Origin: Candidatus Iainarchaeum sp. | Lineage (GTDB): Archaea > Iainarchaeota > Iainarchaeia > Iainarchaeales > JAZDEL01 | Assembly (NCBI GenBank): GCA_043808785.1 | Contig: JAZDEL010000010.1 | Coordinates: 60,001 to 92,000, forward strand | DNA: 32,000 nucleotides | Direction: 5' to 3' | Part shown: positions 24,278 through 31,563 of the stretch, in pieces | How the letters are laid out: every line of letters starts with the position of its first letter | Position numbering within the stretch: position 1 is the stretch's first letter | Translations under genes and position numbers: made by a program | The notes under the pieces: model-generated | What the model saw: only the letters and a program-made list of their open reading frames with translations | Databases searched by the model: none | What the model was told of the DNA's origin: nothing

Positions 24278-24921
24278 TATTTCCCCTCCTCCCCCTCCTG
24301 CCACTTCTGCGGGTTTTTGAAGTACTCGGCTGCGCTTTTGTACTCCTCCCCCGAAAGTTTCCCCGCCTTGTGCAGTTCCTCTAAGAGTTCCCCCACAGCG
24401 AGAACTGAATGCAGTTTGTAACCCCGCTCCGCTAACTGTTCCTTCCCCCCCTGCCCCCTGTCGACAAGCACGATAACATCCTTCACAACAAGCCCCGCTC
24501 CCTTGAGCACTTCAATAGCCTCGAACTTGCTTTCCGCAGTGGTTATCAAATCGTCGCAGAGCAGGATCGTTTCCCCTTTTTTGAAAACACCCTCTATCCC
24601 CTGCCCCGTGCCGTAATCCTTCCTCTCCTTGCGCGGGTAAATCATGGGCACGTTCGCCTCGAGGCTGAACGCGGTGGCAATCGGCAGCGCGGCATAAGGA
24701 ACCCCCGCAACCCTGTCGAACTTAAGTTTGTTTTTTTTCGCGAGCGCATCGAATTCCTTTGCAACCAGCCCCAAAGTTTTCGGGTATGAAACAAGCAGGC
24801 GCAGGTCGAGGTATATCGGGCTTTTCAAACCCGATTTAAGGGTGAACAAACCAAACTTCACGGCTCCTATTTTGTGCAATTCGATGCAGAGGTTTTTTTT
24901 GTTGTCCTTAACCATACACAA
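24277..24921 (-). CDS. pyrE: Orotate phosphoribosyltransferase
   Basis: 214-aa ORF. VKFGLFTLKSGLKSPIYLDLR and the PRPP loop ILLCDDLITTAES, then VLVDRGQGG, resemble the UMP-synthase-type OPRTase lineage. Confidence 0.85.
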   Translation of the reverse strand: MCMVKDNKKNLCIELHKIGAVKFGLFTLKSGLKSPIYLDLRLLVSYPKTLGLVAKEFDALAKKNKLKFDRVAGVPYAALPIATAFSLEANVPMIYPRKERKDYGTGQGIEGVFKKGETILLCDDLITTAESKFEAIEVLKGAGLVVKDVIVLVDRGQGGKEQLAERGYKLHSVLAVGELLEELHKAGKLSGEEYKSAAEYFKNPQKWQEGEEGK

Positions 24922-26095
24922 CTTCCCCCTTCACTATAGTCTTCACCACAACGCCTTTTATCCTTTTCCCGTCGAAGGGGGTCCAGCCGCACTTGCTCAT
25001 CTGCTCCGAGTTCCTTATCTCGTGCTCCCTGCCCATGTCGACAACAGCCAAATCCGCGTCAAATCCCGTTCTTATTTCCCCCTTCCCCCGCAAACCAAAA
25101 ATCCTTGCAGGGTTTCTGGAGGACACTTCAACCAGCTTGCGCATGGTTATTTTCTTTTGGTTCACGGCGTCAATCATAAGCGGCAGCATTGTCTGCACGC
25201 CCGGCATTCCGTTCGCGCCCTTTGCCTTGTCCCCGCGCGTGTGCGGGGCGTGGTCTGAGGATAGGCAGTCGATTGTGCCCTCGGCGAGCGCCTCCCACAG
25301 CGCCTTCGCATCCGCGCGCGTGCGCAGGGGAGGGCTGACAGATGAAAAATTCCCAAGCCTTTCGGAATCATCCTCCGTGAGTAAGAGATGGTGCGGGCAA
25401 ACTTCACACGTGAGTAAGCCCTTCGCGCTTTTTTTCTCCCTCACGATTGCCCTTGTCCCGTCCTTCGTGGAAACGTGGCACACATGCAACTTATTTCCCA
25501 CCTCGCGCCTGACCTCGAGCGCCCTTTCAATTACCCCCTTCTCCTCCCCCCTGTCCTCCGCATGCACACAAACAACAAACCCGCGCGCCTTCGCGATTTC
25601 GAAAATTTCCTTCAGTTTTTTTCCATCGCCGACAAAAAGGTCGCCGTATTGCGAACCCAAATAAACCTTGAACGAGTTCACGCCCTGAACTTTTTTCAGT
25701 TCCGCAATGTTCCTCTCCGTAGCGCCAAAGTGCATTCCGAACCCTATCCAGGAACCCGCGGATGCGATTTTCATTTTTTCATCAAGTGCCTGCTGCGTTG
25801 TTGTCGCGGGCTTCGTGTTCGGCATGTCGAAAACCTTGGCAACCCCTCCCGCAGCTGCAGCCGCGCTCCCCGTTTTCCAGTCCTCCTTGTATTCAAATCC
25901 AGGCGTGCGAAAGTGAACATGCGCATCTATTGCAGCGGGAATTACCGCCATGCCCGCGCAGTTAACCGTGCGCGCTGCGGGGGTTTTTATTTTCCCCTCG
26001 CTTGCAGCAGTGATTTTCCCGCCATCAATCCCTATCCACATCCTCTGCAATTTTCCCCTGTAGAAAGCCCTGCAGTTTTCAAGGATTAAGTCCAT
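24908..26095 (-). CDS. pyrC: Dihydroorotase
   Basis: 395-aa ORF with the amidohydrolase metal motif IDAHVHFRTPG, later HAED and SDHAPH blocks, and a DADLAVVD tail. Its 3' end overlaps the pyrE start, giving a pyrC-pyrE-pyrF operon. Confidence 0.85.
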   Translation of the reverse strand: MDLILENCRAFYRGKLQRMWIGIDGGKITAASEGKIKTPAARTVNCAGMAVIPAAIDAHVHFRTPGFEYKEDWKTGSAAAAAGGVAKVFDMPNTKPATTTQQALDEKMKIASAGSWIGFGMHFGATERNIAELKKVQGVNSFKVYLGSQYGDLFVGDGKKLKEIFEIAKARGFVVCVHAEDRGEEKGVIERALEVRREVGNKLHVCHVSTKDGTRAIVREKKSAKGLLTCEVCPHHLLLTEDDSERLGNFSSVSPPLRTRADAKALWEALAEGTIDCLSSDHAPHTRGDKAKGANGMPGVQTMLPLMIDAVNQKKITMRKLVEVSSRNPARIFGLRGKGEIRTGFDADLAVVDMGREHEIRNSEQMSKCGWTPFDGKRIKGVVVKTIVKGEVVYG

Positions 26096-26148
26096 GTGAC
26101 CGCCTTTTTACTATTGATTTAAGGATATATATAATATGGGCTGGTGCA
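26025..26148. repeat. Direct repeat copy A (pyrC first about 24 codons + 5' UTR + promoter)
   Basis: Hand alignment to 27091-27213 (offset 1066 nt). About 100 nt are near-identical with 5 substitutions, then the promoter part has small indels. The two + strand shadow ORFs in the track end in the same peptide (...LQFSPVESPAVFKD), which confirms the duplication independently. Confidence 0.9.
26125..26137 (-). promoter_or_regulatory. TATA-rich putative pyrC promoter element
   Basis: An ATATATATAATAT run lies about 30-40 nt upstream of the pyrC ATG (26095). The same element is duplicated in degenerate form at about 27193-27203 in repeat copy B. Confidence 0.4.
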
Positions 26149-26247: not shown

Positions 26248-26844
26248 TTATTCCCTGAAATCCTTTATCGGGAATATGAGGTTAACGTATGTAGCGCCAT
26301 CCTGCTTAATCAGCGTGTTCTCCCTGAAGTTGAACTTCTTTTTGTACCACTCCGCCCTGTGCGGGTATGAGTCAAGGGTAATGTACATCCCCCCCACAAG
26401 CGGGACAATCTTCTTCACTATAAAGCCCATTGCATAGCAAACCAAAAAAGGGCCGACAACGCCCTTGTTCTGGCAAGCCTTGTCCACAGCCAGCCGCCCT
26501 ATTTTGATTGCGGGAATCTTGCCGTAATCCTTCCCGCGCCTGCGCCGGGTTTCCCTGTCTATCGTGATTGCATCCTGCGACAAAGCAAAGAAGCCCATGA
26601 CTTTTTTGCCGCCTTTTTGGACCGCCACATATGTGCGGTTCCAGCCCTCTTCTTTCTGGGCAAGCGCGTCGTTTTTTATGAAATCGTTCAGGTCCCTGTC
26701 CCCGGCATGCCCGGAAAAGCAGTCGAACGCCGACACGTCATGCTCTTCTGTAAACGGCTCCACTACGAGGCAGGAGGCGTGAAGTTCTTCGCTCATCGTC
26801 AACGGCGAGGCTATCTCTCGTGGCTTTCGTAAGTCGCTATGCAT
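26248..26844 (-). CDS. GNAT-family N-acetyltransferase toxin (TacT/KacT/AtaT-like)
   Basis: The blocks FDCFSGH..DLNDFIKNDALAQKEEGWNRTYVAV, VMGFFALSQDAI, IPAIKIGRLAVDKACQNKGVVG follow the pattern of DUF1778-associated GNAT toxins (FDCG...L..FL, TYV, GYY.LS, IGRLAVD..QG.G). The start is ambiguous: 26844, which overlaps the upstream small gene, or ATG 26796. Confidence 0.7.
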   Translation of the reverse strand: MHSDLRKPREIASPLTMSEELHASCLVVEPFTEEHDVSAFDCFSGHAGDRDLNDFIKNDALAQKEEGWNRTYVAVQKGGKKVMGFFALSQDAITIDRETRRRRGKDYGKIPAIKIGRLAVDKACQNKGVVGPFLVCYAMGFIVKKIVPLVGGMYITLDSYPHRAEWYKKKFNFRENTLIKQDGATYVNLIFPIKDFRE

Positions 26845-26957
26845 GACTGCAGTATCCGCACGTCCTTTTCAGTCATGCCCTTTCCCGTATGCAAATCCAG
26901 AAACCTTTCGGCATCCTTCCCCTTCAGTTCGGGGGTCATAATAATCGGCTTTGCCAT
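26811..26957 (-). CDS. Putative cognate antitoxin (48-aa small protein immediately upstream of the GNAT toxin)
   Basis: ORF 26811..27056 trimmed to ATG 26957 (MAKPIIMTPELKGKDAERFLDLHTGKGMTEKDVRILQSCIATYESHER). AGGTGA lies 6 nt upstream and a TATA-rich run sits at about 26975-26990. The position and size fit an antitoxin. The sequence is not an obvious DUF1778/RHH match by eye. Confidence 0.45.
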   Translation of the reverse strand: MAKPIIMTPELKGKDAERFLDLHTGKGMTEKDVRILQSCIATYESHER

Positions 26958-27083
26958 GCATTTCACCTTTATACGTATATATCGCCGGTTAGTGTATTTA
27001 TTCTTTACTGTGGGGCGCCGGTGATTCCCCTGTGCCATAAATGCCACATGCACCACTATATCGGAATTTCCCTTCCCGGTTTT

Positions 27084-27161
27084 TCACGCGTCAATCCCTA
27101 TCCACATCTTCTGCAATTTTCCCCTGTAGAAAGCCCTGCAGTTTTCAAGGATTAAATCCAT
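27084..27161 (-). pseudogene. Truncated pyrC 5' remnant (25 codons then TGA)
   Basis: The minus strand translates to MDLILENCRAFYRGKLQKMWIGIDA*, against MDLILENCRAFYRGKLQRMWIGIDGGK... for the intact gene. Weaker similarity with a roughly 12-nt deletion seems to continue to about 27064. Confidence 0.8.
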
Positions 27162-27213
27162 AATGCCGCCTTTTTACTATTGATTTAAGGAACTATATAA
27201 ATGGGGATGGTGC
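27091..27213. repeat. Direct repeat copy B (decayed duplicate of the pyrC 5' end + promoter)
   Basis: See copy A. TCAATCCCTATCCACATC[T]TCTGCAATTTTCCCCTGTAGAAAGCCCTGCAGTTTTCAAGGATTAA... is shared by both copies. Confidence 0.9.
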
Positions 27214-27489: not shown

Positions 27490-27558
27490 CAGAACTCCTC
27501 ATACTAATTGCCGTGCAATAAGCTTTTTACGTGTTTCCTCCATATACTTTTCGTTTAT

Positions 27559-28299
27559 ATGCGCCGAAAAAGCGGGAGAAATTGGAAAACGCGGCACGGG
27601 GCATGGAACCCCCAGCGGCACGGAAACCAGCCCCAAGATACGCCGGCATCCGCGAGCCAGCTTTTCCGCAGATACAGGAAATTCATAGCGCCAATCGGAA
27701 TAATCCTGCTGATAATGCTCCAATACCTTCCCGAATATGCTTTCCCTGCCTGGATTCTGGAGAATGGGTTCCTTGCTTCGGTTCTTGCCTCCTTTGCCTT
27801 CACCTCGCTTAACGGCATGCTGTTTTTGGCTGTTTTATTGATAACCGCATGGTTTGCATATAAGTCCTGGCTGTTAAGGATACGGTTCCTGAGGGCAAGG
27901 AACCCCCTCCTGAAAAAGCTGGTTATTGTGTTCATGGCGCTGATTTTAATAAGCAGCATAAAGGCGGATTCCGCCCCCGGCTGGATTGCGGGCTGGCTTT
28001 TGTTCTTTGCATCGGCTTACTTCTGCCTTGCCCTGTTCTGGCTTGCCCTAAAGTGGATAGACAACCTTGACCTGAGTTCCGACCTCACAATCTGGCTCCT
28101 GAGGATTGGCGGCGCAATACTCGCCATGTTCGGGCTTTTTTCGCTGCTTTTCGGGACGGTTGTTTCGGTTATTTCTTTCTCGTTCACAAATTCGATGCTT
28201 TCATTGATTCCCCCTCTCATCGGGGCGTTAATCCTGCTCCTTGGCCTGTTCGGCATCTTCCGCGCAAACAGAAGGCATGCGATGGTTAGGGTTTGGTGA
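27559..28299 (+). CDS. Hypothetical multi-pass membrane protein
   Basis: ORF 27508..28299. At least 5 hydrophobic segments follow a basic N-terminal stretch. Start uncertain: ATG 27559 or ATG 27715. No recognisable domain. Confidence 0.5.
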   Translation: MRRKSGRNWKTRHGAWNPQRHGNQPQDTPASASQLFRRYRKFIAPIGIILLIMLQYLPEYAFPAWILENGFLASVLASFAFTSLNGMLFLAVLLITAWFAYKSWLLRIRFLRARNPLLKKLVIVFMALILISSIKADSAPGWIAGWLLFFASAYFCLALFWLALKWIDNLDLSSDLTIWLLRIGGAILAMFGLFSLLFGTVVSVISFSFTNSMLSLIPPLIGALILLLGLFGIFRANRRHAMVRVW

Positions 28300-28431: not shown

Positions 28432-29148
28432 TTAATCAGGTTTTGACGTTAAGAACTTTGCCCCTCTAAAGTTTTTGGCAGAGATTTTAGTAAGGGCGAT
28501 CCCAAACCATATAAAAAGCAAAGCAACCAAACTCAACAACAAAACTTCTATCTCAGTCGCTTTAATTATGAAAAATGCTGCCACTATTGAAAGGAACAAA
28601 ATTACTGAAAAAGACAAAGTTCCCACAAAGAACCACCAAGCTTTAACTAAGATGACCCATGCATTGTGCAGAACGCGGAAATTTTTTATGGTTTGAGGGA
28701 TTATAAAAAAATAAACTAGGATTACAATGCTTAATAGAAACGCCGAATAAAATAAAACAAATGGCGGAATCTGCGCCATACCGGATAGCAAATTTTCATT
28801 TAGATTTAATGCCGCTAAAACGAAGGCCAAGTCCACGATAAGGAATGCATATGAAAACGTAAAAAACAGCCCAAGTAGTAAAGCAGCCAAAATGATGGGG
28901 ACACTCAGAAATAGAGGCCCAACCACATTATCATAGCTTGAATCCAAGTGCAAATCAAAATTTGTGTTGCGGCCTATGCCGCTATATGGTGTCTTTTTTA
29001 AATAGTAGATTATCGCATATCCTCCAAGTAAGACTAATGCAGTAAAATAGGGCAAAATATCTAATATGTTAGGGATTTTAGAAATGTAGTCCCATGCGAA
29101 AATTATCTTAAATGTTTCAAGGAACCCAAACCAATCGGTCCAAACCAT
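28432..29148 (-). CDS. Hypothetical multi-pass membrane protein (about 6 TM), low-GC
   Basis: 238-aa ORF, strongly hydrophobic and rich in Phe/Ile/Leu, with AT-rich codon usage unlike the core genes. It is divergent from the NTPase gene across a 160-nt AT-rich spacer. Confidence 0.6.
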   Translation of the reverse strand: MVWTDWFGFLETFKIIFAWDYISKIPNILDILPYFTALVLLGGYAIIYYLKKTPYSGIGRNTNFDLHLDSSYDNVVGPLFLSVPIILAALLLGLFFTFSYAFLIVDLAFVLAALNLNENLLSGMAQIPPFVLFYSAFLLSIVILVYFFIIPQTIKNFRVLHNAWVILVKAWWFFVGTLSFSVILFLSIVAAFFIIKATEIEVLLLSLVALLFIWFGIALTKISAKNFRGAKFLTSKPD

Positions 29149-29310
29149 ACTGGATTTTGCAGGTAAACGGTTTAAAATAGGCTATTGAAGAGCGTTGGAA
29201 GCATGTGTTCCTCATATGGTCCACCGGAAATGCGGTCTAAGAACATTTTTAAGTAATCGCTTGCAAGTAGTTATGGTATGCATAGGTGGCAACAACGATA
29301 GTTGGTCGAG

Positions 29311-31563
29311 ATGGATGAAGATATTGTCTTAACTCTAAAAAACGATTGGGATTACCCGCCACATTATGAAAAACAACAAGGTCATTTTATTGGGCGCAAA
29401 GAAGAGCTTGAAAACTTAGTGGATAATTTATCAAGAAAAAATAGTGGCTCTATTTTGATAGCAGGGGATAGGGGGGTAGGTAAAACTGCCCTTGTATACA
29501 AAGCGTTGCAAGAAGTCAAAAAGAGTAAGGATAGGTCTATTTTCATAATCCTCAATGCATCTCAACTGGAGATGGCGTGTGAGGCTGACGGCACAAGTGA
29601 CTTGAAAGAAAAAATAATAAAAAATCTAATCAGGAGGCTTTATGCCATAATGCGAGACGAGAAGGATCTCAAAGACGTCTTCCCCTTTATCGAAATGCTC
29701 TATAGAAAAGTAAGGTTTAAAGAAGAGACCGTAACAATGGTAAGAAACATTAGACGAGAGGAATCTGAAACAGAATCGGTTGAATACGAAAAACAACTTA
29801 AACTGCCGGTGGAATACACAGTAAGTATTGGGTCAAGTCTGGCGGCATTGTTCTTAATTCTGAATCCACTTACCCCGAATGTAGCAATTAACGCAATACT
29901 GCCAATAGCAACGGCAAGTGTTGGTCCGTTTGCGTTTCTGTATGCTCGGAAATATCAAAAGACAAAGTCAGCAAAGAAATCACAAGCCGCGAATGCTGAG
30001 CAATACTATGAATTAGACGATAATATTGGAAATCTCGAATTTGACTTGGAACAAGTACTTGAGAGAGTGCATTCCAAGGGCTACAAAGTGGTTTTTGTAA
30101 TTGATGAGTTAGACAAAATAGATAACCAAAATGTCACAATAGGTGCAATAAAAAGTTTCAAAAATTTATTCAATCTCTCATCCGCAATTTTTGTCCTGAT
30201 TGCAGGGCGGGACACGTTTGATAGGATTCAAGCTGGTAAAGGGCCAAGGACCCCAGACTACACACTTTTTACGCACAAGATATTTTTAAAGCGGCCAACA
30301 TTCTGGGATATTGAGAGTTTTGTGGATGAGATAATAGCAAAGCCAGACATGGCAAAGCTCAAACAAAACGACAAATATAAAGAATTCAGAAATTTTCTTT
30401 CTTTTGAAGCAAAAACTGACTTTTTTGAGTTGTATGCCATACTCCGAGACTACATCAAATTTGATAGGAGCGGCTCTACCCTTGCAATACCTAGATTAAC
30501 GACTAAGGAATTGACCAAAGCAAGGCTGCAAAAAGCAATGGGTCAAGTATTTGGTCGGAGCGGGTGGGGCGTGCCCTCCAAGTGGCATATGGATGAAGAA
30601 ATACTAACAAGCCTATATCTCTTAATAGATGGGCTTGCTGAGAAGGATAAAGGTGACGAGTTTGAAGATGACTTTGGAAATCATCCTACGGATGGTGAAA
30701 ATGCACCCATAAAGCGGGATTTGTGCAAATACTTAGAGCGGCTCGGTGCCATCGAAAAAATCAGTGTTCGGGAAGAGGTAGTTGGCAATAAACCTAAAAA
30801 AATTACGAAGTATCGATGGATGGGCTTCTGCAGTAAGGTTCCTTCTGAGATACGGGAAATAATGATGGAGCATGAGATGACATTTATCGATAGGGCTAGT
30901 TCGCTCAAAAAAATGGTTGTGGAGATAGGTAACCTTTACAAAGTAGCTAACTCTGAAAGAACTTATTCAATGAACGGCTTTCAAAGCAACTCTCGAGAGA
31001 TACTGACGCTTGTTCAAAAACTGACGAATAGAAACTTGGTGCCAATCTTTGATCAGATAACGCCTATAGAGCAAGACCTTAATACTAAATTTCCAAAATT
31101 GCATAAACGTGAGGAAGTAGAGCAACACATAAAGAATCTTGAGGGGGAGATTAATGCCCTTAAAGAGTACTCCCGAATCGCTCTAGAAAATATTATTAAA
31201 GAAAAAGTCGCAGATATGGAATCTTCCCAACTCCAGACAAATGTGGGATTGTTTAGTGCCATTCAAGGATTAAGAAATAACGTAGTACATGGGGGCATAT
31301 TGCACTCAGTAATTTTCAAAAAAGATCTTTCTAAACAATTATTAATGTCTGTAAATATGTCCTCTGATCTAATAAACCAGAATAAACAATTAATACGCCA
31401 AAATTCAAAAACATTAAAAATCGTAAATATTCAAACGGACCCCTCTTTTGACTATAAAGATATGAAACATTTGGGAGGTGGTTTTTCAAGCGTAAAAGTG
31501 ACAGATAATTTTGAAGAACTTGGGCGGGTAATCAAGAAACTAATGCACTGGTTTTTATCATAA
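29311..31563 (+). CDS. KAP-like P-loop NTPase with an intramolecular TM hairpin and a C-terminal HEPN-like (RNxxxH) region
   Basis: The track ORF starts at TTG 29302; I prefer ATG 29311. Walker A GDRGVGKT is at 29464-29487. Two hydrophobic helices lie at 29818-29946. Walker B VVFVIDELDK is at 30088-30117. A coiled-coil-like segment follows, then LRNNVVHGG (RNNVVH at 31273-31290). The codon usage is low-GC. Confidence 0.8.
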   Translation: MDEDIVLTLKNDWDYPPHYEKQQGHFIGRKEELENLVDNLSRKNSGSILIAGDRGVGKTALVYKALQEVKKSKDRSIFIILNASQLEMACEADGTSDLKEKIIKNLIRRLYAIMRDEKDLKDVFPFIEMLYRKVRFKEETVTMVRNIRREESETESVEYEKQLKLPVEYTVSIGSSLAALFLILNPLTPNVAINAILPIATASVGPFAFLYARKYQKTKSAKKSQAANAEQYYELDDNIGNLEFDLEQVLERVHSKGYKVVFVIDELDKIDNQNVTIGAIKSFKNLFNLSSAIFVLIAGRDTFDRIQAGKGPRTPDYTLFTHKIFLKRPTFWDIESFVDEIIAKPDMAKLKQNDKYKEFRNFLSFEAKTDFFELYAILRDYIKFDRSGSTLAIPRLTTKELTKARLQKAMGQVFGRSGWGVPSKWHMDEEILTSLYLLIDGLAEKDKGDEFEDDFGNHPTDGENAPIKRDLCKYLERLGAIEKISVREEVVGNKPKKITKYRWMGFCSKVPSEIREIMMEHEMTFIDRASSLKKMVVEIGNLYKVANSERTYSMNGFQSNSREILTLVQKLTNRNLVPIFDQITPIEQDLNTKFPKLHKREEVEQHIKNLEGEINALKEYSRIALENIIKEKVADMESSQLQTNVGLFSAIQGLRNNVVHGGILHSVIFKKDLSKQLLMSVNMSSDLINQNKQLIRQNSKTLKIVNIQTDPSFDYKDMKHLGGGFSSVKVTDNFEELGRVIKKLMHWFLS

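Follow-up and report, generated by a model that had tools for sequence, protein, structure and literature searches.

A candidate membrane-anchored defence protein in Candidatus Iainarchaeum sp.: a KAP-type NTPase with a rare C-terminal module

The stretch of DNA analysed here (the window) comprises 32,000 nucleotides (nt) from the archaeon Candidatus Iainarchaeum sp. (assembly GCA_043808785.1, contig JAZDEL010000010.1, positions 60,001 to 92,000 of the forward strand). Close to its end lies a complete gene for a nucleoside triphosphatase (NTPase), which is the subject of this report. The N-terminal half of the product is a KAP-type, AAA+/STAND-like P-loop NTPase with intact catalytic motifs, and a hydrophobic hairpin is placed within that core; the C-terminal third is a module of a rare kind. 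The gene belongs with the already published KAP NTPases whose attached C-terminal region has no known function, and is not a KAP-HEPN fusion. On balance, and with some reserve, we regard a single-polypeptide, membrane-anchored KAP-type NTPase that defends the cell against viruses or invading DNA as the most likely explanation, and a mechanism of sensing and membrane output is proposed. What is new is the distinct, rare C-terminal module, together with archaeal members of the family in DPANN, Asgard and methanogen genomes.

The open reading frame (ORF) starts at a TTG (29302) or an ATG (29311) and ends at 31563 on the plus strand, giving 753 amino acids (aa) from the TTG or 750 aa from the ATG. 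The ATG start is favoured because of the homologue alignment and the database copy of the protein (P0001, 'MAG: ATP-binding protein [Candidatus Diapherotrites archaeon]'), which is identical to the 750-aa product. Adding 3 to the 750-aa numbering gives the 753-aa numbering used in an earlier description of the gene made by a model from the letters and their translations (the sequence-only reading). Homologues were searched for among 5.8 billion proteins, and 70 relatives were obtained. They include archaeal as well as bacterial proteins, and most are collinear from end to end, with a length of about 750 aa. Conservation counts out of 33 were taken from an alignment of 33 relatives (A1). A full-length AlphaFold2 model was built on A1, and a separate model of aa 515-750 (750-aa numbering) was built on a second alignment (A2). 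The features of the gene and its surroundings are listed in Table 1.

Table 1. Features of the NTPase gene, its neighbours in the window and the homologues embedded in restriction-modification (R-M) operons. Residue numbers are those of the 750-aa protein unless marked; pLDDT, predicted local distance difference test.
Feature	Position (nt)	Strand	Basis or remark
Complete NTPase gene	29311-31563	+	Stop codon TAA at 31561-31563; in-frame TTG at 29302
N-terminal conserved segment: LKxDWDxPP strand (aa 9-17), then GHFxGRxxEL (aa 24-33) before the P-loop	29335-29409	+	Alignment A1; model strand E5-9
P-loop NTPase core of KAP_NTPase/AAA_16 type, aa 27-345	29389-30345	+	Pfam; Foldseek matches to ORC4, Cdc6/Orc1, RdrA, CED-4
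Walker A GDRGVGKT, aa 55-62 (753-aa) = 52-59 (750-aa)	29464-29487	+	Sequence
Predicted transmembrane hairpin: first helix VSIGSSLAALFLILNPL, short Pro-containing loop, second helix AINAILPIATASVGPFAFLYA	29821-29946	+	Model helices 167-184 and 191-203; hydropathy
Basic cluster RKYQKTKSAKKSQ directly after the second helix	29947-29985	+	Sequence; hydropathy analysis
Walker B VVFVIDELDK, aa 263-272 (753-aa) = 260-269 (750-aa)	30088-30117	+	Sequence
Helical lid, aa 354-444	30370-30642	+	AlphaFold secondary structure; ORC/Cdc6- and STAND-like matches spanning 500-570 query columns
Winged-helix-like domain, aa 450-503 (one helix and a long beta-hairpin)	30658-30819	+	Model; Foldseek
Helical, coiled-coil-like part of the C-terminal module, aa 520-632, with E520-x-E522 and a K-R-E-E motif (aa 599-602)	30868-31206	+	Model, pLDDT 94
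Alpha/beta domain, aa 636-750, weakly restriction-endonuclease-like, without the canonical catalytic triad	31216-31560	+	Foldseek against PDB; BFVD
RNNVVH, aa 658-663 (753-aa) = R655-H660 (750-aa)	31273-31290	+	Sequence
Family signature D-L-S-K-Q-L-L (D672, S674, K675, Q676), turn and start of the next strand	31324-31344	+	Alignment A1
Cassette ORF, 198 aa	26248-26844	-	Very weak GNAT matches, E ~0.15-0.2
Small upstream cassette ORF	26811-27056	-	ORF call
Multi-transmembrane ORF	27508-28299	+	No Pfam or NCBIfam match
Multi-transmembrane ORF	28432-29148	-	No Pfam or NCBIfam match
Multi-transmembrane ORF	~31576 to beyond 32000	+	No Pfam or NCBIfam match; starts 12-30 nt after the NTPase stop
Homologues embedded in type I R-M operons	L005 10001-12277; L006 10001-12283; L011, L012, L018 ~10000-12250		Loci outside the window

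The NTPase core and its hydrophobic hairpin

The Pfam family KAP_NTPase (PF07693) matched the window protein over aa 36-310 with 41.3 bits against a cut-off of 20 (E 1.5e-10), a match that covers profile positions 8-199 of 293 only; the AAA_16 family scored equally well (42.7 bits, cut-off 32.6). PF07693 was also found precomputed for most of the 70 homologues. The G, K and T of Walker A and the D, E, D and K of Walker B were invariant in all 33 aligned sequences. The Walker B motif of KAP proteins takes the form hhhhD[DE]hD[KR], which VVFVIDELDK fits. In the segment preceding the P-loop, L9, K10, W13, D14 and G24 were nearly invariant, and G28, R29 and E32 invariant, in the same alignment.

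The full-length model (pLDDT 85.4, predicted TM-score 0.72) was compared with the PDB using Foldseek. The best matches were to ORC4 and archaeal Cdc6/Orc1 (E 1e-5 to 1e-3), followed by weaker ones to RdrA, CED-4 and the plant NLR protein Sr35 (E 0.002-0.016; 0.007-0.016 for CED-4 and Sr35), with low TM-scores throughout (0.24 normalised by the query, 0.40-0.45 by the target). In the model, the domain order of NTPase, helical domain and winged helix is the arrangement of ORC and STAND proteins. The GxFxGRxxEL element before the P-loop is a further likeness to STAND and ORC/Cdc6 AAA+ proteins, from which the window protein differs by the transmembrane-type hairpin in its core and by having no repeat-type sensor and no recognisable N-terminal effector.

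The two hydrophobic segments of the hairpin, VSIGSSLAALFLILNPL (nt 29821-29871) and AINAILPIATASVGPFAFLYA (nt 29884-29946), span aa 174-190 and 195-215 in the 753-aa numbering, or 171-187 and 192-212 in the 750-aa numbering. The model places them between strand 2 of the P-loop core and the Walker B strand. KAP proteins, as reportedly defined by Aravind and colleagues in 2004, have either two or four transmembrane helices that interrupt the P-loop domain between its two Walker motifs. The hairpin was the hydropathy maximum of the whole protein in 33/33 homologues; its sequence varied across them with hydrophobicity kept, and in most it was followed by a stretch rich in Lys and Arg. Because of this combination of variable sequence, retained hydrophobicity and a basic flank, lipid-facing helices are a better fit than helices of the protein core. 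The basic cluster RKYQKTKSAKKSQ may act as a positive-inside signal. The sequence-only reading had described a KAP-like P-loop NTPase with a hydrophobic pair between its Walker motifs; each motif that it listed was found in the sequence where it had been placed, and the Pfam match, the invariant motifs, the model and the hydropathy profiles bear this part of the description out.

The C-terminal module

The C-terminal module has two parts, the first helical and coiled-coil-like, the second an alpha/beta domain (Table 1). The helical part contains the stretch EEVEQHIKNLEGEINALKEY (EEVEQH..., aa 604-623 in the 753-aa numbering). In the separate model, whose pLDDT was 94.3, the elements of the second domain follow the order beta-alpha-beta-beta-alpha-beta-beta-alpha. 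A signature of the module can be summarised as E522...R655...D-x-S-[KR]-Q676. Within the 33 aligned sequences, Q676 was present in all, K or R at 675 in 32, and D672 and S674 in 29 each; an R-[ED] pair near aa 600, F648 and R655 were also conserved. A profile of the module was searched in 1.84 billion representative proteins, and only 105 proteins carried it, with E522 conserved in 96% of the module sequences, E520 in 82% and Q676 in 87%. Nearly all of them were about 750 aa long with the module at about aa 520-750; the shorter matches are probably gene fragments from short contigs.

Sequence comparison of the whole module with solved structures returned coiled-coil proteins only, and the alpha/beta domain alone returned nothing significant. 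When Pfam was run on 25 C-terminal modules, no consistent family was found. Structural comparison of the C-terminal model with the PDB gave a resemblance that was weak but recurrent: the eight best Foldseek matches were all to the restriction endonucleases Ecl18kI, EcoT38I and Kpn2I, followed by Cdn1, which binds cyclic tetra-adenylate (cA4), and VC1899. Among the viral models of BFVD, the best matches were likewise weak, and included RecB, Mrr, restriction-endonuclease and RPB5 proteins.

These matches raise the question of whether the alpha/beta domain is a divergent but active nuclease effector of the PD-(D/E)xK type, which would cut invading or host DNA once the NTPase has been activated. 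The preponderance of restriction endonucleases in the PDB and the enrichment of RecB, Mrr and restriction-endonuclease proteins in BFVD agree with such a role, as do the conserved acidic or polar residues E520, E522, D672, K/R675 and Q676, and PD-(D/E)xK domains are the commonest effectors among newly validated defence systems (bioRxiv 10.1101/2025.01.08.631726). However, none of the structural matches reached an E-value of 1e-3; in the PDB the E-values were 0.011-0.5 and the probabilities at most 0.82, and the matches had TM-scores of 0.2-0.34 and root-mean-square deviations of 11-19 A. The positions of the canonical D...(D/E)xK residues, at the start of strand 665-670 and the end of strand 676-681, are occupied by H, P or C and by N or D, respectively, and D672 and K675 lie three residues apart at a hairpin turn rather than on two neighbouring strands. 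There is, in addition, no sequence likeness to solved nucleases or to any Pfam family. An active nuclease in this domain is thus possible but not indicated, and we consider the nuclease-effector reading unlikely.

One further protein bears on this reading. In P0164 (822 aa, from a 5-kb JGI metagenome contig, sample 3300067032), a complete module (hhalign probability 93%) is N-terminal and is followed by TPR and SIR2_2 domains, so that the SIR2-like domain would be the effector there. This arrangement hints at a sensor or adaptor role for the module where a different effector is present; it is offered as a lead only, since no relatives of the N-terminal module of P0164 were found and the architecture rests on this one metagenomic protein.

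Distribution and genomic context of the family

A scan of 185,579 species genomes showed the family to be sparse, with members in Actinomycetes, Omnitrophota, Archaeoglobus, Kryptoniota, Chloroflexota, Promethearchaeia, Methanothrix, Elusimicrobia and others. A scan of 2.9 million viral contigs returned no family member. Gene context was assessed at 21 loci that encode a protein with the C-terminal module. In five of them (L005, L006, L011, L012 and L018), which come from distant phyla including Elusimicrobia, Archaeoglobus and Kryptoniota, the homologue is enclosed in a type I R-M operon. In all five, hsdS follows it immediately on the same strand, either 3-9 nt away or overlapping, and the gene order is R-KAP-S-M or M-KAP-S-R. 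Other homologues adjoin a DDE transposase (L001), a large serine recombinase (L003), an integrase accompanied by a methyltransferase and a Prim-Pol (L002), or an integrase, an insertion sequence (IS) element and hsdR (L007). In a neighbour-joining tree, the R-M-embedded copies formed one clade, and the window protein fell in the sister clade, in which IS elements, integrases and a Prim-Pol occur. The family is a rare one, patchy across Archaea and Bacteria and horizontally moving, whose genes lie on mobile DNA or inside type I R-M operons; an association of homologues with mobile or defence contexts had been expected from the sequence. More distant KAP-like genes with no such C-terminal module (L024, L025, L036 and L057) likewise lie directly against type I R-M genes.

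The same neighbourhoods could be taken to mean that the protein serves its mobile element instead of defending the host, as a membrane-tethered ORC/Cdc6-like initiator, a partition factor or a DNA-transfer ATPase. Consistent with this, the structures matched best are winged-helix initiators of the ORC/Cdc6 type, some homologues are named 'Cdc6-like AAA superfamily ATPase' in their source, and the neighbouring genes include those for Prim-Pol, D5 primase, integrases and transposases. Several observations argue against it. In five loci from distant phyla the gene is wedged tightly between hsdM or hsdR and hsdS, as is typical of defence cargo but not of genes for replication; no one mobile-element gene recurs as its partner; and the family is absent from the viral contigs. 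Moreover, a Pfam KAP domain with a transmembrane insertion has been linked to phage exclusion (PifA) (PMC13552941; PMC13001434). A role in the upkeep of the mobile element is therefore judged improbable.

The operon setting recalls that of the anticodon nucleases PrrC and RloC, to which the sequence-only reading had likened the protein on the strength of an NTPase joined to a putative HEPN module. PrrC and RloC are not membrane-anchored. Likeness was found in the placement of an NTPase with a C-terminal module inside type I R-M operons, which applies to the five homologues and not to the window copy. The parallel did not extend further: PrrC and RloC are ABC ATPases (bioRxiv 10.1101/2024.01.29.577857), whereas the window protein is AAA+/STAND-like and has no conserved anticodon-nuclease or HEPN motif, and PADLOC gave no PrrC or RloC match for it. 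The recurrent placement upstream of hsdS suggests a guard relationship like that of PrrC, which could be tested.

The HEPN assignment itself was based on RNNVVH, an exact RNxxxH string in the C-terminal third. Its Arg (R658 in the 753-aa numbering) was kept in 31/33 homologues, but the His at +5 (H663) occurred only in the window protein (1/33). The next His, H665 in the 750-aa numbering and five residues past H660, was present in 18 of the 33, and any Rx4-6H motif starting at the column of this Arg in three. Shuffled sequences showed that Rx4-6H motifs are to be expected by chance in the window protein (four observed, 1.9 expected; P = 0.87 for at least one), while the specific RNxxxH form gave P = 0.036, a value judged post hoc. 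No Pfam HEPN model matched the window protein or any of the 25 C-terminal modules. HEPN-containing PADLOC models did weakly match the C-terminal region of the window protein at nt 30853-31560 (Csx1, E 8.7e-4; CARF_HEPN_CSX20, E 0.048), and these matches are attributed to the coincidental, lineage-specific string RNNVVHG, an RNxxxH on a helical background, because they were confined to this one of the 25 modules. A comparison of the family profile with a 'Dandelion-hepn' chain was non-significant (E 0.51). The four-helix bundle with R658 and H663 at a helix N-terminus, by which the assignment was to be checked, was not seen in models of pLDDT 85-94; in the C-terminal model the Arg sits in the middle of helix 649-660, within an alpha/beta domain, and the His ends that helix just before a strand. 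No HEPN protein was present among the 50 PDB matches listed for that model.

The HEPN module was accordingly rejected, and the reading of the protein as a membrane-tethered abortive-infection ribonuclease gated by the NTPase, which the motif, the weak PADLOC matches and an operon setting known for PrrC had favoured, is left without support and is largely refuted. A perfect short HEPN motif can, as this case illustrates, be a coincidence in a single sequence.

Relation to known systems, proposed role and surroundings of the gene

The window protein resembles members of the KAP family (PF07693), such as Kidins220/ARMS and PifA of the F plasmid, in its Pfam match, the hairpin between Walker A and Walker B, the hhhhDELDK form of Walker B and a sporadic occurrence on mobile DNA. 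It differs from them in the lid, the winged helix and the C-terminal module, which are specific to its own family, and no Pif model was among its PADLOC matches. KAP NTPases with unrelated C-terminal regions of unknown function have been found to block phage, for which they need both Walker B and the C-terminal region (PMC13552941). Those proteins, too, join transmembrane helices and a KAP NTPase to a large, uncharacterised C-terminal region within one polypeptide, and they are linked to recombinases. EF_KAP, which belongs to them, carries a DD Walker B (D246, D247) and, at its N-terminus, a transmembrane helix (PMC13552941), unlike the DELDK motif and the hairpin of the window family; the latter also differs from EF_KAP-type proteins in including archaeal and R-M-embedded members. 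A related observation was made in Enterococcus raffinosus DSM 5633, where a 731-aa KAP-like protein (L046, 5421-7613) is encoded 1.3 kb from a serine recombinase. It aligned with the window family over aa 24-305, that is, the NTPase core and hairpin (hhalign probability 98.5%), and the C-terminal halves were unrelated. This protein may belong to the recombinase-linked antiphage KAP proteins (PMC13552941); its Walker B, DEIDK, differs from D246/D247 of EF_KAP.

Tmn, of the YobI family, offers a second comparison. It has two transmembrane helices in its P-loop domain and forms a decameric membrane complex with a sensing arm made of a coiled coil and an alpha/beta part, exports Mg2+ on sensing a phage protein, and is phylogenetically distinct from KAP (PMC13001434). 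The window family is predicted to share the two transmembrane helices within the P-loop domain, the cytosolic coiled-coil and alpha/beta arm and the single-gene form of defence, whereas the decameric pore and Mg2+ export are known for Tmn alone. No tmn model was among the PADLOC matches at E <=10, and no YobI among the 25 best of 29 Pfam matches.

Other named antiphage families were considered and rejected. The DS-41 antiphage protein (NCBIfam NF053860, DS41_1) scored 26.7 bits against an equivalog cut-off of 370, over the NTPase core only. PADLOC gave only P-loop-level matches to named defence families (PDC-S27 and mad8), and the matches in PHROGs were to the P-loop only.

We infer that the window protein is probably a defence factor, because its family is rare, moves horizontally and often lies inside R-M operons. 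In the mechanism that we propose, the cytoplasmic C-terminal module would sense an infection cue, which in the R-M-embedded relatives could come from the type I R-M complex, through its state or through its inhibition. Binding or hydrolysis of a nucleoside triphosphate would then lead to a conformational change or oligomerisation like that of ORC and STAND proteins, and the output might be a perturbation of the membrane by clustered hairpins, as reported for Tmn and PifA, or some other activity of the C-terminal module.

Several points weigh against this defence role or the mechanism attached to it. No recognisable defence gene adjoins the window copy, whose neighbours are membrane ORFs without Pfam matches, and every R-M-embedded copy belongs to the sister clade and none to that of the window protein. 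Membrane insertion is predicted solely from hydropathy, and in this respect the hairpin of the window protein is the weakest of the family (1.81 and 1.60), with segments of only about 17-21 residues. Perturbation of the membrane as an output is argued purely by analogy, the C-terminal module may be the sensor or the effector, and the family is known from sequences and models alone. A mobile-element function would likewise agree with the ORC/Cdc6-like fold and with the neighbouring Prim-Pol and integrase genes.

The defence role can tentatively be taken one step further, to a possibility that falls well short of probable. These proteins could represent an undescribed archaeal and bacterial defence family, in which a membrane-anchored KAP/STAND-like NTPase would carry a new C-terminal module, made of a coiled coil and a catalytically degenerate restriction-endonuclease-like domain, with the signature E-x-E...R...D-x-S-[KR]-Q. 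The module would keep watch on a type I R-M complex or on an anti-restriction factor of a virus, and the activated protein would turn NTP hydrolysis into an abortive response at the membrane. Monitoring of R-M is suggested because of the conserved position of the homologue directly upstream of hsdS. If so, the window would carry a stand-alone form, which would be among the first KAP-type immune proteins known from a DPANN archaeon. Little is understood of membrane-associated NTPase defences: Tmn was not characterised until 2026, in a preprint, and experiments showing that KAP NTPases with unknown C-terminal regions block phage first appeared in 2025-2026. The high-confidence structural models of the present family point to concrete residues for mutation.

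The NTPase gene lies within a tract of low GC content: in the final 4 kb of the window GC drops from about 0.55 to values of 0.38-0.43; the low-GC island of the sequence-only reading is thus real. Upstream of the gene are pyrimidine-metabolism genes, then a two-ORF cassette on the minus strand, then two multi-transmembrane ORFs without Pfam matches. The cassette had been called a toxin-antitoxin cassette, a name that could not be verified from the GNAT matches in Table 1, and nothing was found for it in NCBIfam. It is bracketed by a direct repeat of 134 nt (26014-26147 and 27080-27213, 87% identical), the first copy of which overlaps the 5' end of an amidohydrolase (dihydroorotase-like) gene at 24908-26095. 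The repeat looks like a target duplication from the insertion of a toxin-antitoxin-like cassette. No hsd gene was found within 3 kb on either side of 29311 in the window, which ends 437 nt past the stop codon of the NTPase gene, and the flanking membrane ORFs and the cassette had no counterpart in 84 related loci. The membrane ORF that begins at about 31576, on the same strand as the NTPase gene, may be co-transcribed with it. Over the remainder of the window, long ORFs in positions 1-26000 are mostly on the minus strand, and GC skew stays persistently below zero (about -0.1 to -0.25) as far as about 15 kb, does so again at 21-23 kb and 24-26 kb, and turns positive after about 28 kb in the low-GC tract.

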